Assembly: GCA_041662745.1 (NCBI GenBank)
Contig: JBAZRV010000001.1
Location: 30,001-62,000, forward strand
DNA from: Patescibacteria group bacterium
GTDB taxonomy: Bacteria; Patescibacteriota; Patescibacteriia; 2-01-FULL-39-33
Direction of reading: 5' to 3'
Length of the DNA stretch: 32,000 bases
Part shown: positions 1,847-15,170 of the stretch, piece by piece
How positions within the stretch are numbered: the first letter of the stretch is position 1
Layout: the number at the start of each line of letters is the position of its first letter
The notes under the pieces: generated by a model
Database searches by the model: none
Told to the model about the DNA's origin: nothing
What the model saw: only the letters and a program-made list of their open reading frames with translations
Position numbers and translations under genes: made by a program

Positions 1847-3045
1847 TTAGAGGATTTTTTATCGGCAATTTTATTTGAACGCGACCCGGCGAAACGATTA
1901 AACAGCCAACCCAAAAGCAATAAGCCGGCCAGCCAAACAACGGTTAGCAACGCCGGCGGCAGAAATTCCAACCAGTCGCTGTAACGGCTGATAATCGGCC
2001 AATGCCATAAATAAATTTCAAACGAATAAATGCCGAAAACTTCTAATAGGACGAATTTGACTTTTTTAAGGATAAATACCAATACCAGGCACAACATAGT
2101 AAACAGGGCGATCACTTGCTCAGGCCAAACCCCGTGTCCGACACCCGAATAATAAGCGGTATAAATAGCGGCAACGATAAAAATAACAAGCAAAAACCAA
2201 CGCCAATAATCAGACTGGGACCTGAAACGCGCTAAAACTCCGGCCAGCCGCTTTCTCTTGCCGATTATAGCGAACCAAGACTTGATTTTTTCCGCCGCCG
2301 CTCGAGGCCGGCACTTATCGCGGCGAAGGCATGACCGGCAAACCGCTTGAGGAGAAACCAAAAGCAAAGCGAATAAAACGCCCAGGGGAAAGGCCAGCGA
2401 ATGCACCTGATAAAATTTTAAAACTTGATCGGAGACCGGCCAACCCGGCCAGAAAGCCAAAAAGCTTACAGCCGTAATCGCTATCGCCGAAAACCAAGGA
2501 TGCTTGGGCCGAAAGATCAAGGGGAATAATAAATAATAAAAAATCAGTGGCGTCAAAAACCATAAAGGCGAATTAAGCGAAGTCCACAAATTAGCGATCG
2601 GAAAAAATCCGATAAATGACAGGACGACTTCCGTAAGCGGATAAAAACGATTAAGCAACCAAGCGTCTAAGCCCAAAAATAAAATCAAAGACAGCCATAA
2701 CGGCCAATAAACTTTCAATATCCGTTTCTTATAAAACTGTCCGATCGTTTTGGGATGGTAAATAGCCGAGGCTGCTAAGCCGTAACCGGACAAGAAAAAA
2801 AACAAGTTGACAGCCACACCGCCCCAAATCCCCAAGGGGAATAAAAAATCAGTGCCGTAAAACTTGCCATAAGTCAAATGAGTAAAAATCACGCCCAAAA
2901 TCGCCAAACCGCGCAGTTCATTGGATATCTCCTTAGGCAAAAGGCCGGGAGCGATCCGGCGACGCGCGGAAATAAAAACCGCCGTGCCCAAAAGCGCTAA
3001 AAAGATAGCGGTTTGGCCGGCGATGTAATTACTGAATAATATCAT
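1831..3045 (-). CDS. acyltransferase-3 (AT3) family integral membrane O-acyltransferase
   Basis: 404-aa ORF that is hydrophobic throughout with about 10 predicted TM segments. The N-terminal region (NELRGLAILGVIFTHL) resembles the AT3 conserved R/H region. It overlaps the upstream SGNH gene by 17 nt. Confidence 0.8.
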   Translation of the reverse strand: MILFSNYIAGQTAIFLALLGTAVFISARRRIAPGLLPKEISNELRGLAILGVIFTHLTYGKFYGTDFLFPLGIWGGVAVNLFFFLSGYGLAASAIYHPKTIGQFYKKRILKVYWPLWLSLILFLGLDAWLLNRFYPLTEVVLSFIGFFPIANLWTSLNSPLWFLTPLIFYYLLFPLIFRPKHPWFSAIAITAVSFLAFWPGWPVSDQVLKFYQVHSLAFPLGVLFALLLVSPQAVCRSCLRRDKCRPRAAAEKIKSWFAIIGKRKRLAGVLARFRSQSDYWRWFLLVIFIVAAIYTAYYSGVGHGVWPEQVIALFTMLCLVLVFILKKVKFVLLEVFGIYSFEIYLWHWPIISRYSDWLEFLPPALLTVVWLAGLLLLGWLFNRFAGSRSNKIADKKSSKKSSC

Positions 3046-3775
3046 AAATCAAATCAGCCCACAGGGCGTAACCCCTGTCCGAGGGGTGGAATCTGTCTGC
3101 CGAGTATGCACCGGAAACGGCCTTCTGATCGGCGCTAAACGGCTTAGCCGAGATGGTATGCAAATCAATCAGCTTCACTCCGGTTTCTTGCGCCACTTCG
3201 GCGATAACGGCATTATATTCTTTAAGCTCTAATTCAAAATACCAATTGTAAGGCGGCAGGACCAAGTCCCGGGCGCCCAAGTAGGGCAAATTAATCAGAT
3301 ATATCTGCGCCTGGGCGATTTGTTGCAATGACCTGACCGCGGTCTCCAGATTGCTTTTGAACTTTTCTCGCGGCACAAAATTATGCATGTCATTGGTGCC
3401 GATGAATAAAGTAATCATTTGGGGTTGCATCTGTCCGGCAGCAATGACTTGGCCGGTCAGAATATCAAAGCTGGTGGCCCCGGGTACGCCTAAATTATTG
3501 ACAATGACTTGCACTCCGGAAGCGGCGGCTATTTTCTGCGCCAAAGCCCCGGGCAAAGAAGTAGCGGCGGAAGTCGCTCCCACGCCGGCTGTCAATGAAT
3601 CGCCTATGGCCACATAAGTCATCCTTTGCCCTTTTTCTTCAGTCATATAGTTTTTTTCTGCCGGCGGACTGATTAATTCAAATTTTGAATAAATATAAGC
3701 ATAAGCGCGATTGAGATAGATGCCGATCAGCGCGACAATTATGATAATAATGATTAAATTCTTATGCTTAGCCAT
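3029..3775 (-). CDS. SGNH/GDSL hydrolase-type esterase with N-terminal membrane anchor
   Basis: 248-aa ORF with an N-terminal TM helix (NLIIIIIIVALIGIYL). Block I is GDS (VAIGDSLTAGVG), block III is GTND (LFIGTNDMH) and block V is DxxH (DRFHPSD). Confidence 0.85.
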   Translation of the reverse strand: MAKHKNLIIIIIIVALIGIYLNRAYAYIYSKFELISPPAEKNYMTEEKGQRMTYVAIGDSLTAGVGATSAATSLPGALAQKIAAASGVQVIVNNLGVPGATSFDILTGQVIAAGQMQPQMITLFIGTNDMHNFVPREKFKSNLETAVRSLQQIAQAQIYLINLPYLGARDLVLPPYNWYFELELKEYNAVIAEVAQETGVKLIDLHTISAKPFSADQKAVSGAYSADRFHPSDRGYALWADLIYDIIQ

Positions 3776-5727: not shown

Positions 5728-8700
5728 CTAAAGCTTTTCAATTTTTATCTTTACTTTTTCGCCGTTAATACTGACTGCCTTGGCATCGCTATCAGCCTCT
5801 ATGATTTCCTGAGTTAGGGTGGATTTTTTCAATTCCTCATTAAGCAGAGCATCGCCAAAGACTTTTTTAACCGTTTCTCCTTCACTCTGCCAGCTCAGTT
5901 TAATCCGGTCTTTAATGGTCAAGCCGGCATCCTTGCGCAAGGTATTAACAGTCCTGACAAATTCGCGCCAAGCGCCTTCAACTTTCAATTCATCAGTCAG
6001 ATCGGTATCCAATTCCAATTTAATCTCCGTCCCGCCGGCAAACTCTAAATTCTTAAGATTCAGTTTGTCCTTAATCAAATTTATGAGTTGCTGTTTATAT
6101 GGTTCTTCGGCTAACGCCAAACCGAAAACCGTGGCCTTGTTAAGCGGTTGCCTGATTTTTATCTTAGCTTCGGCGCGGGCGGCTAAGCCCAACTCTTCTA
6201 TGGCAGCGGCCAAACCCATCTGCTCTTTCAATTTGTCGCTGTAAGCGCTCGCCTCCTTGCTACCGTATAATTCCTTATCAATTTCCGGCCAACTCTCCAA
6301 ATGGACCGATTCCTTCTCACCGCCGATCTGTTTGTAAACGTATTCGGCGACAAAGGGCGTAAAGGGTGCCATGATCTTGGATAATTCCAGCAGGACGAGC
6401 CGGAAAGTGGCGATGGCTTGATTCTTGTCCGCTTCATCATCGCCCTTCAAGCGTTCGCGCGACGATTGCAGCCAACGAGTGGAGAACTCGTCTATGAATT
6501 CAGCCAAGGGGCGGGTGGCGCGGGGCAAATCATAAGCTTCCATGTTCTTGGTCACTTCCAAAAGCAACAGATTTAACTTTACCGACAGCCATTTATCCAA
6601 AATATTATCGCTTTTAACCGGCTCGGACGCCGCTGTCCCAGAAACTTCGTATAACTTATAAAAACTCAGAATATTATTCAACAGCATGGTAACCTTTTGC
6701 ATTGCTTCTTTGACGGCGTCATCGGAAAAATTCAAATTTTCCGCAGTCATGACTGGCGCGGTCAAAAGATAAAAACGCAAGGCGTCGGCGCCGTATTTGT
6801 CCATGATTATTTCCGGTTCCGTGTAATTCTGCAAGCGCTTAGACATCTTCTTGCCGTCTTCAGCCAGAACAATGCCGTTGACAATGACGTTTTTGAACGC
6901 TTCGCTGTCTCGTACGGCTGTAGCAATGATGTGGAGATAATAAAACCAAGCGCGCGTCTGATCCACGCCTTCGGCAATAAATTGCGCCGGAAAACCGGCC
7001 AGGAATTTCTCCTGATTCTCAAACGGATAATGCTGTTGGGCGTAAGGCATGGAACCGGAATCAAACCAAGTGTCCAGCACATCGGGAATTCTCGTCATTT
7101 TTTGGCCGCATTCTTGACAAACAATCTGCCATTGGTCCACGAAATGCTTATGCAAATCGGTTATCTTCTGTTTTATCTCCAGCACTTGCCCTTTCTCCAC
7201 CGCCAAATCCCTAAAGGTTTGGCTCGGTTCGTAGCCGTAAAGCCTGCCCAAAAACGACTTGATCGTGTCTTCGTGGCTGACCAATAAAATATTCTTGCCT
7301 TCGTACTTTTCATTCAATTCTTGATACAGGGCCAGGGTCCGCTCCGTCACTTGCCGAACGCTTTCACCGGCCGGATAAGCATTATCCCAATCGCTTTTCC
7401 ATTTGGCGATAACCGCCTTGGCTTTATCGTCAACATCGGATTGTTCTTCCAGCTCGCCGGCATCAAGCTCGTTCAAGCGGGCGTCAAAAACCAGCTCTGC
7501 GCCCGTAACTTCGGCGATGAGCTGAGCCGTTTCCTTGGCGCGCAAGACTTCGGAAGAAACGATCAAATCAATTTTTTTATCTTTCAATCCGTCGGCGGCA
7601 ACTTTAATTTGTTCTCGGCCGTTAGCTGTCAATGAGTAAACACCCAAACCGCTGCTGAACACGTGTTTAATATTCTTTTCCGCTTCGCCATGCCTGATGG
7701 CGAAAAAATTATTCCGATCTATTTTCAGCTCTTCCAGCTCAGCCACGCTGCCGATGACTTTTATTTCACCGCACTGGCACCGCCACAGCGGAATGACGCT
7801 GGCCCAAAATCGCTGACGGGAAATTGACCAGTCGCGCGCGCCCTCCAGCCATTTGCCGAAACGGCCTTCCTTAATATGCGCCGGCGACCAATTAATATTC
7901 TTGGCGGTTTCCAACGCCTTCGCTTTGATGTCTGTTACTTTGACAAACCAGGAACTGGTGGCGTAATTGATCAGCGGCGTATCGCACCGCCAGCAATGCG
8001 GGTAGCTATGTTCGTATTCGGCGCTGGCAAAAAGCAGTTTGTGTCTGTCCAGATATTCAATGACTTTTTTGTCGGTTGCCTTGGTATCTTCCGCCGGCTT
8101 GACATTCAGGCCGGCAAAATCAGCCACTTCATCCTTAAAATTCCCTGCCAAGGTCACATTCTGAATGAAAGCCAAATTTTCTTCTTGGCCCAATTGCATA
8201 TCTTCTTCACCATAAGCCGGAGCGATATGCACTACGCCGGTGCCATCATCGGTGGTGACGAAATCAGCGGCTACGATAGTGTATAAATTTTCTTTATTGG
8301 GCAAATCTTTGTCTAAATAATATGGGAATAACGGCTTATACTCTTTGCCAATCAATTCTGAACCCTTGAACTTGTCCAAAACCCGGACTTGCTGGCCGGC
8401 AAAAACTTTCTCCAAAAGCGCTTCAGCCAAAATCAATTTTTCACCGGGTCTGACCACTGACATCGTAGCAGTTATCTTATTCCCGCCTTCAACATCATAA
8501 GCTTCCATTTTCTTATTGGCGCCAGAACTGACGACAACATAGTCAATATCTTTTCCCACCGCAAGCGCCACATTGCCCGGCAGAGTCCAAGGCGTGGTCG
8601 TCCAAGCCAAAACATAAGCGCCCGGCTCATCAACCAACTCAAATTTAGCCGTCACCGACAAATCCTTAATATCCTTATAACCCTCACTAACCTCCTGCTG

Positions 8701-9267
8701 GCTCAGGGTTGTTTCGCATCTGGGACAGATATGCATGGACTTATAACCTTCATAAACCAAACCCTTGTCATACAATTCCTTAAACACCCACCAAATTGAT
8801 TCCATGTAAGACAAATCCATGGTCTTGTAAGAATCGTCCATATCCGCCCAGCGGCCGAAACGGGCGATGGTCTTTTTCCATTCCTCAACATAAACCAAAA
8901 CCTTGCTGCGGCAGTATTCGTTGAATTTACCAATGCCGTAGTTTTCAATATCTTTCTTGCTCTTAAAGCCCAGTTCTTTCTCCACGATGTTTTCAATGGG
9001 CAGGCCATGGCAATCCCAACCCCAGCGACGCTCCACATAACGGCCGCGCATCGTCCAAAATCGCGGCACCACGTCTTTCATCAGACTGGCGACCATATGG
9101 CCGTAATGCGGAGTACCGGTGGCAAACGGCGGGCCGTCATAAAAACTGTAAGCCTCGCCAGCCCTGGTCTGTTCCAGTGATTTCTCAAAAATTTTATTAT
9201 CCGTCCAAAATTTTTGGATCTCTCGCTCTCTTTCCGGAATCGGATTAACCCACTTTTTTTCTTCCAT
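5728..9267 (-). CDS. ileS: isoleucyl-tRNA synthetase (type 2-like) carrying an inserted histidine-phosphatase domain
   Basis: Motifs present: class I HIGH variant TPHYGH, KMSKR, CP1 editing motif TTTPWTLPGN, and WFDSGSMPYAQQHYPFEN. The start was set at ATG 9267 (MEEKKWVNPIPERE) because the 26 upstream codons of the ORF overlap the leader terminator. See findings for the insert at 7159..7725. Confidence 0.95.
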   Translation of the reverse strand: MEEKKWVNPIPEREREIQKFWTDNKIFEKSLEQTRAGEAYSFYDGPPFATGTPHYGHMVASLMKDVVPRFWTMRGRYVERRWGWDCHGLPIENIVEKELGFKSKKDIENYGIGKFNEYCRSKVLVYVEEWKKTIARFGRWADMDDSYKTMDLSYMESIWWVFKELYDKGLVYEGYKSMHICPRCETTLSQQEVSEGYKDIKDLSVTAKFELVDEPGAYVLAWTTTPWTLPGNVALAVGKDIDYVVVSSGANKKMEAYDVEGGNKITATMSVVRPGEKLILAEALLEKVFAGQQVRVLDKFKGSELIGKEYKPLFPYYLDKDLPNKENLYTIVAADFVTTDDGTGVVHIAPAYGEEDMQLGQEENLAFIQNVTLAGNFKDEVADFAGLNVKPAEDTKATDKKVIEYLDRHKLLFASAEYEHSYPHCWRCDTPLINYATSSWFVKVTDIKAKALETAKNINWSPAHIKEGRFGKWLEGARDWSISRQRFWASVIPLWRCQCGEIKVIGSVAELEELKIDRNNFFAIRHGEAEKNIKHVFSSGLGVYSLTANGREQIKVAADGLKDKKIDLIVSSEVLRAKETAQLIAEVTGAELVFDARLNELDAGELEEQSDVDDKAKAVIAKWKSDWDNAYPAGESVRQVTERTLALYQELNEKYEGKNILLVSHEDTIKSFLGRLYGYEPSQTFRDLAVEKGQVLEIKQKITDLHKHFVDQWQIVCQECGQKMTRIPDVLDTWFDSGSMPYAQQHYPFENQEKFLAGFPAQFIAEGVDQTRAWFYYLHIIATAVRDSEAFKNVIVNGIVLAEDGKKMSKRLQNYTEPEIIMDKYGADALRFYLLTAPVMTAENLNFSDDAVKEAMQKVTMLLNNILSFYKLYEVSGTAASEPVKSDNILDKWLSVKLNLLLLEVTKNMEAYDLPRATRPLAEFIDEFSTRWLQSSRERLKGDDEADKNQAIATFRLVLLELSKIMAPFTPFVAEYVYKQIGGEKESVHLESWPEIDKELYGSKEASAYSDKLKEQMGLAAAIEELGLAARAEAKIKIRQPLNKATVFGLALAEEPYKQQLINLIKDKLNLKNLEFAGGTEIKLELDTDLTDELKVEGAWREFVRTVNTLRKDAGLTIKDRIKLSWQSEGETVKKVFGDALLNEELKKSTLTQEIIEADSDAKAVSINGEKVKIKIEKL

Positions 9268-9485
9268 ACTGTTATTTATGATTACTGTTTGTTTAAAATA
9301 AAAAACACCAACTTGGCTGACCGGAGCCCTCGCGGGCGGTACCATCTCGGTGTTTGACTTGATTTCAGCTGTTACGGGCTGACCGGCCGATTTTACTTTC
9401 CGTTACAAACGGGTTTCTTTCGGCAGCTCCAATGGTGATAACCACTGTCGGGCGCTGTTATTGATTGTTTAACTTGCTTATACGA
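9268..9485 (-). promoter_or_regulatory. T-box riboswitch leader upstream of ileS
   Basis: The minus strand reads ACCGAGAUGGUACCGCCC-GCGA-GGGCUCCGGU. This is a T-box-like GGUACCGC core in which a UGGU bulge is flanked by ACCG/CGGU and GCCC/GGGC helices capped by a GNRA loop. A competing terminator (AACACC...GGUGUU plus a U-run, 9293-9354) overlaps it. AUC triplets are present at 9389-9391 and 9361-9363. Confidence 0.65.
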
Positions 9486-9580: not shown

Positions 9581-10123
9581 TTACTTACGTGTCTGCGTAT
9601 CAGCATTAACCCGTAATTCGGCGTTGCGGGTCATAACCGAACCGGTGTCGTTGTCCACATAACAAAAATAATAGTCGTCATCTTCAAGGCTGATTTGCGG
9701 CCAGCTAAGGGTTGGAGATTGCGCCGTGGGATTATCAACCGGCAGATAAATCTTGCACAACGGGCAATGATTGCGTCGGCACCATTGATAGCGCAGGTTA
9801 TTGCCCACGGCCACCACGGTCAAAGACACCGCCTGTCCTTCATTGACAGTGAGATCATCGGGTTGGCGGATGATCATCGGCGGCATTTCCATCTCACCCC
9901 CCCCTGCGACGCCGCAACAAAAGCCGTCTTCAGTGCCGACTTCAGGGCAGGCATGATAAGCGCCGCTATTATAAAATTGGATCACCCGCAATAATTCCGC
10001 AAGCGAGATTATGCCGTCCCGATCAACATCGGCGTCATGAAAATTATTTATCTCCGCCACTATTGGAAACAAACCGACGGCTAAGATAAAAACCAAGATC
10101 AGCAACAAGGCCCTGCATCTCAT
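9581..10123 (-). CDS. secreted protein with dockerin/EF-hand-like motif and one Ig-like (I-set-like) domain
   Basis: AGGAGG RBS. Signal peptide MRCRALLLILVFILAVGLFPIVAE. DADVDRDGIISLAELLRVIQFYN is a Ca-binding loop-helix pattern. The Ig-like module runs PPMIIRQPDDLTVNEGQAVSL...YQW...DDDYYFCYV...AELRVN. Confidence 0.7.
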   Translation of the reverse strand: MRCRALLLILVFILAVGLFPIVAEINNFHDADVDRDGIISLAELLRVIQFYNSGAYHACPEVGTEDGFCCGVAGGGEMEMPPMIIRQPDDLTVNEGQAVSLTVVAVGNNLRYQWCRRNHCPLCKIYLPVDNPTAQSPTLSWPQISLEDDDYYFCYVDNDTGSVMTRNAELRVNADTQTRK

Positions 10124-10488: not shown

Positions 10489-10676
10489 TGCCGTTCTCCT
10501 TATCCTATTGCAAAAGAACTCTGAATTCATTTGAATACGCTATCATATCAATAGTTAATTGTCAATTAAAGGATTGCTCGTCCGGCAGGGCTTATGGGGC
10601 GATTTTGGAAAAATTAAGTGACGAGGATTAGAACTATTTAAAAAGTTCTTGATTCGTATAAACTGTGAATAACTAT

Positions 10677-10705
10677 TTGACGTTTTTACCGGCATTTGTT
10701 AATAT
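10677..10705 (+). promoter_or_regulatory. candidate promoter of the NrtR-like gene cluster
   Basis: TTGACG (10677-10682), 17-nt spacer, TAATAT (10700-10705), about 30 nt upstream of the ATG at 10737. Confidence 0.5.
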
Positions 10706-10736
10706 GCGTATATAAGACACAAACTAAAAATTATTT

Positions 10737-11414
10737 ATGAATTTGGGCAATAGCAAATACCAAAATCAATATCTGCATGCTGACGCCGCAGTCTTTACGG
10801 TCGAAGACCGTAAGGTCAAGTTGCTTTTGGTGCGCCGTTCCCGCAAACCCTACATTGGACAGTGGTCGCTGCCGGGTGGAGGAATTTACCGCACAGAATC
10901 AGCTAAACAGGCGATAAAAAGGGAATTGGCATACAAGACTGGATTGAAAAATCTCTATCTGGAAGAATTCGGCGTCTTTAGTGAGCCGAAACGCGATCCA
11001 CGCGGCCGCATCATCTCAATCGCCTTTCTCGCCTTACTAGATAAGAACAAAGTGTCGCTATTGCAGAAAACACCCAAAACCATGGGCGCGAAGTGGTTCG
11101 ACATAAAAAAGTTGCCGCCTATAAAATGGGACCACAAAAAAATCACCAACTTGGCTATTGCAAAGCTGCGCAAGCGACTTTTGGAATCCAACATTGCTTG
11201 CCGGCTGTTGCCGAGATACTTCACGCTGCCAGAATTGCATAAGACTTATGAAATCATCCTTGGTAAACAACTCGATCGTCGCAATTTCCGCAAGAAATTC
11301 CTCAAGCTGGGCTTGATTATCAAGACAGAAAACAAGGAACGCGGCAGTAGGAACCGTCCGGCCGCCTATTACAAGTTCAAGACCGAACAGCATCAGGATA
11401 TTTCCATCTTTTAA
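10737..11414 (+). CDS. nrtR: NrtR-like protein: Nudix domain with degenerate Nudix box fused to a C-terminal winged-helix domain
   Basis: The Nudix-like box GGGIYRTESAKQAIKRELAYKTGL lacks the full REUxEE signature. The C-terminal segment FTLPELHKTYEIILGKQLDRRNFRKKFLKLGLI...RPAAYYKF matches my recollection of the NrtR wHTH region. Confidence 0.8.
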   Translation: MNLGNSKYQNQYLHADAAVFTVEDRKVKLLLVRRSRKPYIGQWSLPGGGIYRTESAKQAIKRELAYKTGLKNLYLEEFGVFSEPKRDPRGRIISIAFLALLDKNKVSLLQKTPKTMGAKWFDIKKLPPIKWDHKKITNLAIAKLRKRLLESNIACRLLPRYFTLPELHKTYEIILGKQLDRRNFRKKFLKLGLIIKTENKERGSRNRPAAYYKFKTEQHQDISIF

Positions 11415-11503
11415 ACCTTCAACGCTTATTGAGACTATGACCCACGAGTGCATCATTTGGCAACTTAGTTTGAGTATATTTTACACAAAAAATAATCATC
11501 ATT

Positions 11504-12682
11504 ATGCCCAGTTTCCATCTCTGCAATAACAACGTCTGCACCCGGCTCTATCTTTTCGGCCAGGATTTAAAAAGCCTACTGTTGCAAAACTGCTGGCAGG
11601 AATTGCCTCTGAACCAAGCCGACCTTATTTTCGTCAATTCATGTTCTTTCCTAACAAAGACCGAAAATTTTTTTCTGGCTAAGATTGAAAAATTAGACAA
11701 ATCCAAAACCGCCAACCAGAAAATCATCGTCTTTGGCTGCTTGCCGCATACTTCTCTCGAAAAATTAAGAATGGTCTTCTCCGGCGAAATCATGCCGGCC
11801 AGGGACCTGGCGCAAGCAGCCGACCTGCTTGGTTTAAAATCAATAAACAGTAATATTGGCTATTCGATTCCGCGCCAATTGCGAACTTTAGATCGTTTCA
11901 ATTATTTCATCAATAAATACCTGATTCGCAATGCCTATTTGGGCTATCTGTCCGGCGAACCGGCCTATTACCTCAATATCGCCCGAGGCTGCCTCGGCAA
12001 ATGCACATATTGCTCAGAAAAAACAGCTCGCGGACCCCTTTCCAGTTGGCCGATTGCCGATATCGCCGCCTCTTTCCGAACCGGCTTGAAGCAAGGCTAT
12101 AGGATATTCTCCCTTAATGCCGATGATGTCGGCGTTTTCGGCTGGGATCGGAAGGAAAACATCGCCGGATTGCTCAATGAACTGCTATCAGCTGACGGTG
12201 ATTTTAAAATTATCCTGACAGAATTCAATCCCTGGGGTTTGATCAAGCATCAGCAAGAACTACTGTCGCTTCTGGCTTCAAAAAAAATAGCTCATATTAC
12301 CATTCCCCTCCAATCCGGCTCGGATAAAATCCTCAAGCTGATGAGGCGACCTTATTCCATTCTGACAGTCATGGACATTATAAGACTTATTAGAAATAAT
12401 AATCCAAACATCATCATCAATACCCATCTGATCGCCGGTTTTCCGGGAGAAACCGAAGAGGATTTCAGACTGACACTTGATCTCGTCAAGTCTGGCCTGT
12501 TTGACAAGGTCAAAGTCTTTCCCTATTCCGATCGACCGCAAGTGCCGAGCTACGACTTGCCGTATAAAATTCCGCCTCGAATAATGGCTGAACGCTCCCG
12601 ACGGCTGAGATATGAAACCTTCAGGCAGGCGCTACTGAAGCTAAACCTTAGAAATATATTGCTCAATCTGCAAAAAATTTAA
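11504..12682 (+). CDS. radical SAM enzyme of the methylthiotransferase (MiaB/RimO-like) family, no TRAM domain evident
   Basis: CxxxCxxC motif at ARGCLGKCTYC. MTTase-like core blocks HITIPLQSGSDKILKLMRRPY and LIAGFPGETEEDFRLTLDLV...VFPYSDRP. The N-terminal domain has Cys in LCNNNVC, NSC and FGC, resembling the UPF0004 second-cluster domain. The protein ends about 40 aa after the core. Confidence 0.8.
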   Translation: MPSFHLCNNNVCTRLYLFGQDLKSLLLQNCWQELPLNQADLIFVNSCSFLTKTENFFLAKIEKLDKSKTANQKIIVFGCLPHTSLEKLRMVFSGEIMPARDLAQAADLLGLKSINSNIGYSIPRQLRTLDRFNYFINKYLIRNAYLGYLSGEPAYYLNIARGCLGKCTYCSEKTARGPLSSWPIADIAASFRTGLKQGYRIFSLNADDVGVFGWDRKENIAGLLNELLSADGDFKIILTEFNPWGLIKHQQELLSLLASKKIAHITIPLQSGSDKILKLMRRPYSILTVMDIIRLIRNNNPNIIINTHLIAGFPGETEEDFRLTLDLVKSGLFDKVKVFPYSDRPQVPSYDLPYKIPPRIMAERSRRLRYETFRQALLKLNLRNILLNLQKI

Positions 12683-12685
12683 TTT

Positions 12686-13258
12686 ATGACCATTCTAATC
12701 TGTGGACAATCAGGCACAGGAAAAACGACGCTGGCCAAAATTATGGCAGATAAGCTTAATGCTGTCTGTATTTCGACTGACAGCATTAAGTTGTTTGCGC
12801 GTGCCAGCGGCTACGGCAATGCCTTTACCTATACCGACAGCCACGGCGCCTGGTCTAAGTTTGGTCGGAAGAATCGCCAGAATATCATCCGCGGCTTCAA
12901 AGCTCACAATCGCGTGCTCGAACAGCTCATTACAGACATCATCAAAGAAGCCGACGGTATTTCCCAACACTTAATCGTCGAAGGCGTTCAAATTACGCCT
13001 AAAATGTTAAAAGAGTTGCCAGGTGAAAAAATGGCTATCTATCTAGATTTACCGTGCAAAAAAACTCACTTCAAAATTTTCGACTATAAGAATTCGAGAC
13101 GCAAAATCGCCAACACTTTGTGGCGCGCCAATTACGATGCTATCCGACTGATTAATGACTATACTAAGGATGCCTACCGCCGAGCCGGATTCAGCATTAT
13201 TAGGTCAGCTCCAGCCGAGCTTGTGGCCGATCGGTTGCTAACAAAAATCCGCATATGA
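12686..13258 (+). CDS. P-loop kinase, 2-phosphoglycerate-kinase-like (COG2074-like)
   Basis: Walker A GQSGTGKTT. ISTDSIKLFAR and IIRGF...LIVEGVQITP resemble the 2PGK-family blocks (STDxIR, EGVH). The start is 3 nt after the radical SAM stop, and the stop overlaps the next start (ATGA). Confidence 0.65.
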   Translation: MTILICGQSGTGKTTLAKIMADKLNAVCISTDSIKLFARASGYGNAFTYTDSHGAWSKFGRKNRQNIIRGFKAHNRVLEQLITDIIKEADGISQHLIVEGVQITPKMLKELPGEKMAIYLDLPCKKTHFKIFDYKNSRRKIANTLWRANYDAIRLINDYTKDAYRRAGFSIIRSAPAELVADRLLTKIRI

Positions 13259-14118
13259 ACGACTACCGAGATTGCGATTATTTCATTGATGACTTGGGCG
13301 ACATTCATATTGTGCGCGGCTACTTGCATCCAGTCAACTTAGTGCGGACCAAGCTGATATACAAAAAAACTTCCGCAGGCGATCGCAGCCGCCGCAACGG
13401 AGATTGCTACGAAAAAAATCAGATCGACCAAATTATCTATCTCCCGGCCAGCCGTATAAAAGAGTATTTCCGGCCATTAAATAATCCCATAAAGACGAGT
13501 TTGGAGGGTCTCTGGCTGGACATGTATAACGAGCTGAATAATTACGTCGCTGCAGACGACATTGGAATTTTCGGCTCCAGCCTATTGGATTTTCCAGTCA
13601 CCCGCGATGTCGACTTTATTATTTATGGCTTGGACAATTGCCGACGGATAAAAAGCAATATAGAAACGATCAAAATGGCGATGGCAGTGCCGGGAATCTC
13701 AACCAATCACATCAATTATCAATCGCAAAAATTTTCGGCATCGCATGAACCGGGCAATAACACCCTAGCCAAGACTTTAGCCAACAAGTGGTGCACGGTG
13801 CAAATCGCGCCGGGAGTTTCCAACACGTTGATGTTCGGCTACAAGGCGGAAGAAATCGGCGACTGGCTAAATGCCGATGACCGGCCGGGGAAAGACATTG
13901 TTGTGGAGGGTGAGGTCCTAGATGATATCCGCACCAACTTCAGCCCGAGGATTTTCAACGTACGGGATCGCCGTGGTATAATTTTTACAGTAAAAACATA
14001 TTATTGGGCTTATCATGCCTGTGTGCGCATCGGCGACATAGTTACGATTGCGGGCAGATTAGTCGACCGCAACATAATTCTATTGAATAATTTCAATCAC
14101 GGCATCGCAATTAGATAA
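13255..14118 (+). CDS. predicted nucleotidyltransferase (Pol-beta superfamily motif) with beta-rich, possibly OB-like C-terminal region
   Basis: The GS-x10-DxD pattern (IGIFGSSLLDFPVTRDVDFIIYG) is the minimal NTase signature. The C-terminus VVEGEVLDD...FTVKTYYWAY...GDIVTIAGRLVDRNIILLN looks like a small beta-barrel. The ATGA overlap indicates translational coupling with the kinase gene. Confidence 0.6.
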   Translation: MNDYRDCDYFIDDLGDIHIVRGYLHPVNLVRTKLIYKKTSAGDRSRRNGDCYEKNQIDQIIYLPASRIKEYFRPLNNPIKTSLEGLWLDMYNELNNYVAADDIGIFGSSLLDFPVTRDVDFIIYGLDNCRRIKSNIETIKMAMAVPGISTNHINYQSQKFSASHEPGNNTLAKTLANKWCTVQIAPGVSNTLMFGYKAEEIGDWLNADDRPGKDIVVEGEVLDDIRTNFSPRIFNVRDRRGIIFTVKTYYWAYHACVRIGDIVTIAGRLVDRNIILLNNFNHGIAIR

Positions 14119-14161
14119 CAAGCTTGGTTATATAATATCCGGTTTATTTCCAGCTTATTCC

Positions 14162-14266
14162 AAAACCCTCCTCGTCCCGCCTGCCTGCCGGTAGGCAGGT
14201 CCGCCCTAACCATAAATCAACAAAAAAGACCTAAATTCATAGGTCTTTTTATGTTACTTCATTAAG
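14162..14266 (+). repeat. direct repeat copy A (structured intergenic element containing a terminator)
   Basis: It aligns with 15061..15170 at roughly 90 percent identity by hand alignment. It contains hairpin cctgcct-gccggt-aggcagg and terminator agaccta-aattca-taggtct plus a T-run. Confidence 0.85.
14222..14250 (+). terminator. intrinsic terminator of the NrtR-like cluster (inside repeat copy A)
   Basis: aaaaaagaccta-aattca-taggtcttttt. Confidence 0.75.
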
Positions 14267-14337: not shown

Positions 14338-14366
14338 TTGACAAAAATAACTAGTTGCGATAACAT
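14338..14366 (+). promoter_or_regulatory. candidate promoter of the cassette gene
   Basis: TTGACA (14338-14343), 17-nt spacer, TAACAT (14361-14366). Confidence 0.45.
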
Positions 14367-14423: not shown

Positions 14424-14993
14424 ATGCCATTGTTTAATATTGATCGCCCTAAGGCAGAAAGAATTAAATCAAGGTTGGTTGCCATACTACCAACCAAGAA
14501 GCAGAAAAGAGAAATATTCCTAGCCACCGCCAGAAGAGTGGTCGGTCGAAAAGTAATCGAATGGAATTCTTGTTGTGGCACCTACGGCCAGGGCGGGCCG
14601 GGATTCTTGGGTTTTAAGCTTGAAAAAAATTTCAGATACCACGAAGAATGGTTGATCTTAAGAATTTGGGGTGCGGATAATTGGTTGCTGGTCAACGGTC
14701 TATGGTTTGCGGCCGATCCCGATCAATATGATATTCAAGTCCCGCTTTATTCAAATTATTATGAAAAAGAATGGGATAATTTTTCCGAACTAATTATAAG
14801 CGAAAGAATAGAGACATTCGAGATTGCTGAAAAAACTATGACAATTACCATTGGATCTACTGTTATTTCGCTTGGCGATAATCCGGAAGAGCGGCCCAGA
14901 TATGCCGGTAACGGCGATCAACGCAAACTCGATGAAGCTGATGACCTACGAGAGGCCTGGATACTTTCTCCTTATGCCTGGGTTGAAATATAA
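14424..14993 (+). CDS. hypothetical protein (189 aa), Trp-rich, bracketed by direct repeats
   Basis: AAAGGAGAAAG RBS 4-5 nt before the ATG. No signal peptide and no family recognised. It has its own promoter and terminator. Confidence 0.65.
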   Translation: MPLFNIDRPKAERIKSRLVAILPTKKQKREIFLATARRVVGRKVIEWNSCCGTYGQGGPGFLGFKLEKNFRYHEEWLILRIWGADNWLLVNGLWFAADPDQYDIQVPLYSNYYEKEWDNFSELIISERIETFEIAEKTMTITIGSTVISLGDNPEERPRYAGNGDQRKLDEADDLREAWILSPYAWVEI

Positions 14994-15060
14994 TTGTTAC
15001 ACTAAGAGACACATTAACCAATGCCGAGGACAAGGATGTCCCCGGCGTTTTCATTTTTCT

Positions 15061-15170
15061 AAAATCCTCCTCGTCCCGCCTGCCTGCCGGTAGGTAGGCA
15101 GGTCTGGGCTAACCGCAAACCAACAAAAAAAGACCTAAATTCATAGGTCTTTTTATATTATTTCATTAGG
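15061..15170 (+). repeat. direct repeat copy B
   Basis: Same element as 14162..14266, with a 4-nt tagg duplication in hairpin 1, one extra A, and about 10 substitutions. Confidence 0.85.
15125..15154. terminator. bidirectional intrinsic terminator (inside repeat copy B)
   Basis: aaaaaaagaccta-aattca-taggtcttttt sits between the convergent cassette gene and the ferredoxin gene. Confidence 0.75.

Follow-up and report, generated by a model that had tools for sequence, protein, structure and literature searches.

A conserved module of a TRAM-less radical SAM enzyme, a P-loop kinase and a Pol-beta nucleotidyltransferase in a Patescibacteria genome

The window analysed here is a 32,000-nt stretch of contig JBAZRV010000001.1 (assembly GCA_041662745.1, positions 30,001 to 62,000 of the forward strand) from a metagenome-assembled genome (MAG) of Patescibacteria, or candidate phyla radiation (CPR), bacteria. 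Between positions 10737 and 14118, the ORF (open reading frame) list of the window contains four plus-strand ORFs, named g1 to g4 below; database entries for the identical proteins call them hypothetical or radical SAM (S-adenosylmethionine) proteins of 'Patescibacteria group bacterium'. Genes g2 to g4 encode a radical SAM enzyme of the methylthiotransferase (MTTase) family, a small P-loop kinase and a nucleotidyltransferase of the DNA polymerase beta (Pol-beta) type, and they constitute a real conserved module; g1 encodes a regulator. The features of the cluster, all on the plus strand, were as follows.

10677..10705, plus strand: promoter-like site, sigma-70-like (TTGACG, 17 nt, TAATAT, with TG extension), upstream of g1; a consensus match only
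10705..10721, plus strand: operator-like site 1, TGCGTATATAAGACACA, with a GT-N7-AC core; overlaps the -10 hexamer and ends 16 nt before the ATG of g1
10737..11414, plus strand: g1, regulator of the NrtR/AraR family (225 aa)
11471..11487, plus strand: operator-like site 2, TGAGTATATTTTACACA; ends 17 nt before the ATG of g2 and is weaker than site 1
11504..12682, plus strand: g2, TRAM-less radical SAM enzyme of the MTTase family (392 aa)
12686..13258, plus strand: g3, small P-loop kinase of the 2-phosphoglycerate kinase (2PGK) or nucleoside monophosphate kinase-like class (190 aa)
13255..14118, plus strand: g4, Pol-beta nucleotidyltransferase with two flanking beta-barrels (287 aa)
14180..14250, plus strand: GC-rich palindrome (14180-14199), then an intrinsic-terminator hairpin (14223-14250) closing the operon, both found by scan

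A first-pass annotation of the window had placed four plus-strand genes between one promoter and one terminator. The ORFs were confirmed, and a scan recovered both the promoter-like site and the terminator hairpin, which bracket the four-gene cluster. The tight packing of the last three genes was confirmed as well: g2 and g3 are spaced by 3 nt (TTT), and g3 and g4 share an ATGA overlap. Base composition of the four-gene region was no outlier relative to the rest of the window, and neither tRNA genes nor Rfam families above gathering score were found in the 32 kb.

The trio was already visible in the gene contexts of close homologues of g4 and g2. An alignment of the g4 family was scanned against species-representative genomes (25 loci) and a metagenome collection (61 loci), and the loci were processed by ORF calling, clustering and removal of near-identical loci, resulting in a set of 75 non-redundant g4-family loci (cited individually by L numbers). 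A kinase gene was present in the same operon in 46 of them and an MTTase-like gene in 40, both figures being lower bounds as many contigs are only 1-3 kb long. Intergenic distances within the module were mostly negative or a few bases, and start and stop codons usually overlapped. The order MTTase-like gene, kinase, nucleotidyltransferase was seen in Patescibacteria and many DPANN archaea; kinase, MTTase-like gene, nucleotidyltransferase in Bacilli, Clostridia, Muribaculaceae and some DPANN; and kinase, nucleotidyltransferase, MTTase-like gene in Saccharimonadia. Hosts included Buchananbacteria, Saccharimonadales, Woese-, Pace-, Nano- and Parvarchaeota, as well as MAGs of gut Firmicutes (Bacilli, Clostridia) and Bacteroidota (Muribaculaceae). 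Comparison of gene neighbourhoods, proposed at the outset as a check on all four genes, thus bore out g2 to g4, which are translationally coupled in dozens of unrelated genomes, and found g1 with them in only 3 of the 75 loci.

Taken singly, each protein receives superfamily-level annotation only, and the cluster could on that account be viewed as a chance adjacency of four unrelated genes, among them a degenerate RimO or MtaB, a nucleoside kinase and an orphan protein. Synteny contradicts this: the adjacency is kept across bacteria and archaea in dozens of loci, with overlapping start and stop codons, differing gene orders and an operator common to several loci, and we consider such an explanation scarcely credible. 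Every component is from a known superfamily. None of genes g2 to g4 reached a curated NCBIfam cut-off (equivalog or subfamily), g4 belongs to no family and g2 hides no TRAM domain; an assignment to characterised housekeeping enzymes, which would have spoken against the first-pass reading, was thus not obtained from the profile searches. Likewise, no function for this combination of genes was found in family models, solved structures or the literature searched, as the first-pass annotation had anticipated.

In L002, the closest relative of the window locus (64% identity in g4), two short ORFs of 108 and 86 aa (2514-3152) are all that is left of the MTTase-like gene. Kinase and nucleotidyltransferase genes are both intact there, and the operator upstream forms a perfect palindrome; the reduced gene may be a pseudogene, or g3 and g4 may work without g2. 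A single module-bearing contig was filed as viral (L032, IMG/VR UViG_3300039379_000022, 233 kb; also L072, L077 and L079). It carries FtsH, an HD-domain protein and choline-binding surface proteins besides the module and more likely represents a small cellular genome than a phage, and a phage origin of the module was rejected on this ground.

The g2 product matched the Pfam families UPF0004 (2.6e-09) and Radical_SAM (7.7e-18). Against TIGR00089, the model of the MiaB/RimO family, it scored 229.7 bits (cut-off 251) and aligned only to profile positions 20-361 of 429; because 18 residues remain after this match, there is no room for a TRAM domain. Pfam TRAM (PF01938) was absent from g2 and from all of its close homologues, and present in more distant matches. 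Scores against the four equivalogs were all below cut-off (MiaB, MtaB, e-MtaB and RimO; 186.6 against 314.7, 169.8 against 357, 168.2 against 357 and 150.6 against 355). A bona fide RimO or MtaB, or one with a hidden TRAM domain, was ruled out by these scores and by the point at which the profile alignment ends. Among 19 aligned family members, the auxiliary-cluster cysteines C12, C47 and C79 were conserved and the radical SAM CxxxCxxC cysteines C163, C167 and C170 were invariant. Profiles and alignment therefore agree with the initial description of g2 as an MTTase core with an N-terminal cysteine triad and a CxxxCxxC motif, lacking TRAM.

The nearest solved relatives of g2 were RimO (4JC0, 7.6e-34) and MiaB (7MJV, 7.8e-25), and its sequence relatives (35-63% identity) fell into ~45 clusters of 364-399 aa, with a few fragments and one 584-aa fusion. 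With MiaB, MtaB and RimO it shares the N-terminal UPF0004 three-cysteine auxiliary 4Fe-4S cluster and the radical SAM CxxxCxxC core. Unlike them, it has no TRAM domain, lies below the family cut-off and all equivalog cut-offs, comes in every case with a kinase and a Pol-beta nucleotidyltransferase, and in some genomes is fused to a CYTH domain or replaced by a class-I methyltransferase.

For g3, the sole full-length family similarities were to two small-molecule kinases, and both were weak: NCBIfam 2PGK (2e-15, 56.9 bits against a cut-off of 343, profile positions 93-277 of 306) and mevalonate-3-phosphate 5-kinase (6e-13, 49 bits against a cut-off of 250). The weak similarity to the kinase domains of these enzymes extends along the full length of g3, which fits the P-loop kinase with 2PGK-like blocks noticed originally. 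In contrast to 2PGK, g3 lacks the N-terminal ~90 residues and scores far under the cut-offs, and its identification as a true 2-phosphoglycerate kinase was rejected on score and architecture. A g3 family profile (46 sequences) gave generic PDB matches only (adenylate kinases, AK6/Fap7, shikimate kinase, NRK1, PSTK). Residues K13, D32, H53, E99, G100 and K135 were invariant in the family. A word-indexed homologue search with g3 itself returned one relative only.

The g4 protein itself had no match in Pfam, NCBIfam or PADLOC. A word-indexed search found six clusters of homologues at 90% identity among 5.8 billion proteins, and a profile search found 231 family representatives among 1.84 billion. 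In a 72-sequence alignment G107, D118 and D120 were invariant and S108 nearly invariant (≥90%), and 13 of the 72 members reached Pfam NTP_transf_2; the GS...DxD nucleotidyltransferase signature recognised at first reading is well borne out by this conservation. The family is worthy of a name, being covered by no current Pfam, NCBIfam or PADLOC model.

An AlphaFold model of g4 (pLDDT, predicted local distance difference test, of 87) comprised a small N-terminal beta-barrel (residues 1-72), a minimal Pol-beta core with the GS (107-108) and D118xD120 motifs on a helix-strand-helix-strand arrangement, and a C-terminal OB (oligonucleotide/oligosaccharide-binding) fold (~213-286). Searched with the full model, Foldseek matched the OB fold only, to IF1, the OB domain of LysRS and SSB, all weakly (E above 0.001); model and matches together answer the earlier suggestion that a predicted structure be checked for an OB fold. 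With a truncated model (1-205), the N-terminal barrel drew only weak Sm/SH3-like matches, and no nucleotidyltransferase came up as a convincing neighbour. No whole-chain PDB match for the barrel-nucleotidyltransferase-OB architecture was found by Foldseek, and a TiaS-like or ligase-like architecture was unsupported by structure comparison. Conserved residues of the flanking barrels were K54, Y36, Y52, R232, W251, D261 and H282; the conserved D8 and D261 both sit in the flanking domains.

Compared with PDB, the g4 family profile gave marginal, motif-level matches to Trf4, TUT4 and MntA (E 0.013-0.44), of which the RNA-tailing enzymes Trf4 and TUT4 were best. The Pol-beta hG[GS] and DxD motifs are shared with these proteins. 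The likeness goes no further than the motifs: the combination of N-terminal barrel and C-terminal OB fold is unique to g4, and the core seems to lack a conserved third acidic residue.

Unusual members of the g4 family were also encountered. Protein P0170 (640 aa) continues at its C-terminus into a fused polyprenyl synthetase domain (1.2e-19). The polyprenyl link was treated as weak, since the UppS genes found in four loci lie several genes off and, where checked, on the opposite strand; in L006 and L016 UppS is part of a conserved block with Metallophos and SerRS. In a Bacilli MAG from goat rectum, two tandem g4-family genes (285 aa each; L026, 7860-9606) follow a kinase and a radical SAM gene. 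A 2487-aa frame in L093 (580-8040) joins a B12-type radical SAM N-terminus, a short g4-like GS/DxD stretch and a very long surface-protein-like tail, and may be an artefact of assembly or genetic code.

The g1 product matched Pfam NUDIX (2.6e-18, 66.8 bits) and NrtR_WHD (1.6e-23, 83.1 bits), both above the Pfam cut-offs, as expected from its earlier description as a degenerate Nudix domain with an NrtR-type winged helix-turn-helix. The Nudix box, read from the sequence, has YK in place of the catalytic EE, which suggests a sensor rather than a hydrolase. Its best PDB match was Bacteroides AraR (BtAraR, 5BS6, 7e-41), followed by Shewanella NrtR (SoNrtR, 3GZ5, 4e-31), and it scored 136 bits against the NCBIfam NtrR equivalog (cut-off 400). 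AraR of Bacteroides responds to L-arabinose and NrtR of Shewanella to ADP-ribose. With g1 nearer to AraR than to NrtR, the predicted effector is a pentose or ribosyl compound, not necessarily ADP-ribose. In AraR, R34, R86 and H131 hydrogen-bond sugar hydroxyls (PMC4666351), and in BtAraR these ligands align to R34, R86 and H133 of g1, which thereby retains all three sugar-hydroxyl ligands of BtAraR/SoNrtR.

No NAD (nicotinamide adenine dinucleotide) genes, the regulon by which the NrtR family is recognised, were adjacent in the window, L017 or L020. Orthologues of g1, 44% identical, stand beside the same module in two Clostridia MAGs, and this identity between Patescibacteria and Clostridia suggests horizontal transfer. 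Only 3 of the 75 loci have the regulator gene beside the module, and the operator-like site was present in five bacterial loci.

A 17-nt palindrome was found upstream of all three nrtR genes (TGCGTATAGAATACGCA in L017, TGTGTATGGAATACGCA in L020 and TGCGTATATAAGACACA in the window), and second sites precede the first enzyme gene (TGCGTAAAAAACACACA in L017, TGCGTAAAAAATACACA in L020 and 11471-11487 in the window). The operators in front of nrtR in L017 and L020 are both preceded by a TTGACA hexamer. These sites have two features of known operators in common, the GT-N7-AC core of NrtR sites (PMC2330246) and the GTGT half-site recognised by AraR (PMC4666351). A degenerate pattern derived from the nrtR-locus sites was scanned over 914 kb of collected loci and occurred at only nine distinct positions, each directly upstream of a module gene or nrtR. 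Two loci outside the training set of the pattern, L002 and L023, had perfect-palindrome operators upstream of the module and no adjacent nrtR. The palindromes at 10555-10569 and 10630-10649, nominated earlier as NrtR sites, were not conserved in orthologous loci; the conserved operator-like sites lie elsewhere.

Like NrtR/AraR regulators, g1 thus combines an apparently inactive Nudix-like sensor with a winged helix-turn-helix and conserved sugar-binding Arg/Arg/His residues, and the sites resemble NrtR/AraR operators in their palindromy, GT-N7-AC core and promoter overlap. The genes under putative g1 control, in contrast, are not those of NAD metabolism or of pentose catabolism. Of the NrtR-like control envisaged for the cluster, the NrtR/AraR-type family and a conserved operator stood; the regulator is closer to AraR than to ADP-ribose-sensing NrtR, and most loci do without it.

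The module varied considerably in content. In 15 loci the position of the radical SAM gene was taken by a class-I SAM methyltransferase, sometimes as a tandem double; 14 of these loci had no MTTase-like gene, and the exception, L053, had truncated copies of both on its contig. This displacement points to a methyl-transfer-type step as the common role. The MTTase-like protein of L004/L008 (1793-3553), from a DPANN-like archaeal MAG that bears the label Methanosarcinales, is 584-586 aa long and has CYTH fused at its N-terminus (phmmer 6e-7; hhalign E 2e-8, 95% probability). Free-standing CYTH genes (CyaB-like, 1.1e-11) were in the operon in seven loci, and a helix-turn-helix-CYTH regulator followed the module in two. 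Additional kinases were of the AAA_28, NadR-kinase-like family (2.4e-28; seven loci) or dTMP-kinase-like and in the operon (four loci). In three loci g4 was directly followed by a gene that fuses a CobC-like histidine phosphatase with a MutT-like Nudix domain; this phosphatase is most similar to the alpha-ribazole phosphatase CobC (98.9 bits). A GFO/IDH/MocA oxidoreductase directly preceded the kinase in 11 loci, and an epimerase of the nucleoside diphosphate (NDP)-sugar type directly followed g4 in two non-redundant Patescibacteria loci, L002 and L007 (L001 being the same contig as L007). Metallophosphoesterases accounted for 5 of 150 neighbours. DPANN loci usually contained a divergent ~280-aa gene with no family match, the N-terminus of which looked helix-turn-helix-like by eye, and the F97 protein of Saccharimonadia loci had no relative in PDB.

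In two unrelated loci (L007, 5271-6092, and L006, 4554-5420) the module is directly preceded by a second radical SAM gene of small size (273-288 aa), the L007 gene weakly matching viperin (pVip, 4.8e-6). Separately, one of the 150 neighbour proteins matched PADLOC pVip-kinase (1.6e-27).

Some of these partners could be read as salvage of a cofactor or base, with 2-methylthioadenine serving as a cobamide lower ligand or with an NAD-type route from nucleoside through mononucleotide to dinucleotide. MTTases attack C2 of adenine, reviews list 2-methylthioadenine cobamide among the natural cobamides, the CobC-like phosphatase is a partner, AAA_28 is the NadR ribosylnicotinamide-kinase family, the regulator is of the NrtR family, and several hosts are gut bacteria. 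Yet no cob or nad genes were present in any locus, all of the similarities are under curated cut-offs, and the known adenylyltransferases of nicotinamide mononucleotide and flavin mononucleotide, like CobU and CobY, are not Pol-beta enzymes. For the cobamide link itself the literature search gave a single mention, and we regard salvage of this kind as very improbable.

From the domain content, the conserved module, the methyltransferase displacement, the accessory genes and the conserved operator, we infer a chemistry, a substrate and an order of steps. We tentatively favour, at a little under an even chance, a three-enzyme small-molecule pathway in which g2 to g4 make a methylated or methylthiolated nucleotide or ribosyl compound and do not act on tRNA or ribosomal protein S12. 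In such a pathway, g3 would phosphorylate a nucleoside, nucleotide or pentose precursor, assisted in some genomes by the AAA_28 and dTMP-kinase-like kinases. By means of its radical SAM and auxiliary clusters, g2 would then methylthiolate the phosphorylated compound at an unactivated carbon, and where the class-I SAM methyltransferase is present, it would perform a simple methylation instead. The role of g4 would be to transfer a nucleotidyl group to or from the product, the acceptor being held by the two flanking beta-barrels, and the Nudix-histidine-phosphatase fusion, where present, may drive the reverse, degradative direction. In the window, the operon would be repressed by g1 at 10705-10721 and 11471-11487 and released by a pentose- or ribosyl-containing effector.

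A small-molecule substrate is favoured because g2 has no TRAM domain and CYTH domains are fused to it or encoded beside it; because the module recruits extra nucleotide kinases and a Nudix-phosphatase fusion able to reverse a kinase and nucleotidyltransferase route; and because of the sugar-type oxidoreductases and epimerases and the three kinds of regulator with small-molecule sensor domains. Also counted in favour of the pathway were the conservation of the module, the displacement by a methyltransferase, the sugar-binding residues of g1 with its operator, and the affinities of g3 to small-molecule kinases. The range proposed in the first-pass annotation, a (thio)methylated nucleotide, an ADP-ribose-related metabolite or a modified RNA end, is still what the evidence allows.

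Several observations weigh against a small-molecule pathway. To our knowledge, all characterised MTTases act on macromolecules (A37 of tRNA or Asp88 of S12), so that a small-molecule substrate for g2 would be unprecedented, and Pol-beta nucleotidyltransferases are not the usual makers of NDP-sugars or dinucleotide cofactors. The g2 family is basic (median isoelectric point 9.4 against a background of 8.5), and the g3 profile matches the tRNA-dependent kinase PSTK over its full length (E 1.6e-4). The OB fold and the weakly Sm/SH3-like barrel of g4 are both typical of RNA-binding proteins, and residues 121-205 contain no acidic column conserved at ≥75%, so that the core seems to lack a conserved third catalytic carboxylate. 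Finally, each accessory gene occurs in a minority of loci only, and some of these genes may reflect common ancestry of neighbouring genomes rather than function.

The main rival, which we judge unlikely, is an RNA modification or repair complex in which the barrels of g4 replace TRAM and bind RNA. On this account, g4 would add or activate a nucleotide at an RNA end or position, g3 would phosphorylate either the RNA itself or some intermediate, and the site would be marked by g2 or by the class-I methyltransferase, resembling Pnkp/Hen1 repair or a multi-subunit tRNA A37 methylthiotransferase. The Foldseek matches of the OB fold (IF1, the anticodon-binding OB domain of LysRS, SSB) and the weak Sm-like matches of the N-terminal barrel are consistent with this, but all of them are weak, concern the barrels only and include no whole-protein match to an RNA enzyme; the conserved barrel residues could equally line a pocket with the catalytic core. 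Trf4 and TUT4 as best profile matches of g4, the basic g2 family with RimO and MiaB as its closest solved relatives, and the PSTK match of the kinase also speak for RNA. Against it stand the absence of tRNA and Rfam RNA genes from the window and the small-molecule sensor domains (Nudix-like, CYTH) of the regulators, while the CYTH-g2 fusion, the Nudix/CobC-like phosphatase and the AAA_28 and dTMP-kinase-like partners fit an RNA substrate poorly.

The parallel with Pnkp/Hen1 lies in the set of parts: a P-loop kinase, a metallophosphoesterase (in some loci), an OB-joined nucleotidyl-transferring enzyme and a SAM-dependent methylating enzyme. However, g4 is a Pol-beta enzyme and no covalent nucleotidyltransferase of the ligase type, the module usually has a radical SAM MTTase homologue as its methylating enzyme, and the proteins are separate and unfused. 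Pfam and PDB profile searches detected no sequence similarity of the module proteins to Pnkp or Hen1.

Returning to the small-molecule pathway, its nearest analogue in concept is viperin with the nucleotide kinase encoded beside it. In viperin (pVip) systems, as in the module, a radical SAM enzyme stands beside one or more P-loop nucleotide kinases, and the proposed substrate is a free nucleoside triphosphate. By contrast, g2 is a two-cluster enzyme of the MTTase family with no significant match to the PADLOC pVip model, a nucleotidyltransferase is the obligatory third partner, and the genomic context is mostly housekeeping.

The analogy also invites a reading of the module as a conflict or defence system, in which a viperin-like radical SAM enzyme and kinases would make a toxic or chain-terminating nucleotide analogue that g4 installs or uses. 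The sporadic, cross-domain distribution, the rarity of the g4 family, the variability of both gene order and gene content, and the horizontal transfer suggested by the 44% identity of the regulators would all suit such a system. So would the genes of mobile-element or defence-like character near the module in L002 (Fic, AEP primase, helicases) and L005 (TraG-like genes), and the weak pVip match of the second radical SAM gene in L007. Census of the 150 neighbours, on the other hand, revealed no consistent defence neighbourhood; the window and many other loci are flanked by housekeeping genes (IleRS, ArgRS, SerRS, topoisomerase, trigger factor), the lone 'viral' contig with the module is cellular (FtsH), and control by metabolite-sensing repressors is more typical of metabolism. 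Although g2 and g3 weakly match both components of the PADLOC candidate system PDC-M51, these matches are confined to the generic radical SAM core (g2 against PDC-M51A, 4.7e-4, residues 251-340 only) and the P-loop (g3 against PDC-M51B, 2.5e-4), and membership of PDC-M51 was rejected. The defence reading appears improbable.

For the small-molecule pathway, the existence of a TRAM-less clade tied to a kinase and a nucleotidyltransferase suggests that MTTase chemistry was recruited to another substrate, maybe a free nucleotide, as with viperin. In its most specific form, which is conceivable but doubtful, g2 would be the first radical SAM enzyme of the MTTase family to methylthiolate a free nucleotide (e.g. 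a 2-methylthio adenine nucleotide) or a related ribosyl compound, with g3 and g4 as its dedicated kinase and installing or activating nucleotidyltransferase. These enzymes would then define a previously unknown modified-nucleotide pathway of CPR, DPANN and reduced gut Firmicutes, switched by nucleotide- or pentose-sensing regulators. If the substrate is a free nucleotide, the activity would be categorically new. The hosts of the module are mainly organisms whose genomes are the smallest known (CPR, DPANN and reduced gut Firmicutes), where retained operons likely matter for a host-dependent lifestyle, and its three small proteins, one repressor and two defined operator sites are testable reagents.

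Other features were noted around the cluster. An element of ~110 nt occurs as a direct repeat at 14155-14264 and 15054-15168; in each copy a GC-rich palindrome (CCTGCCTGCCGGTAGGCAGG) comes first and a 28-nt terminator hairpin, identical between the copies, second. Its two copies flank an ORF at 14424-14993 (189 aa, no family) with its own promoter-like site at 14338-14366, and the arrangement resembles either a duplication of the terminator region or the insertion of a small cassette. On the minus strand, 9581-10123 encodes a 180-aa protein with an N-terminal hydrophobic segment, a weak EF-hand or dockerin-like motif and an immunoglobulin-like domain (Ig_3, 8e-07) of a type annotated more often in eukaryotes. 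Also on the minus strand, 5728-9345 encodes an isoleucyl-tRNA synthetase of 1205 aa, the catalytic domain of which holds a complete His_Phos_1 insertion (residues 549-721, E 1.2e-37), an unusual feature for an aminoacyl-tRNA synthetase.

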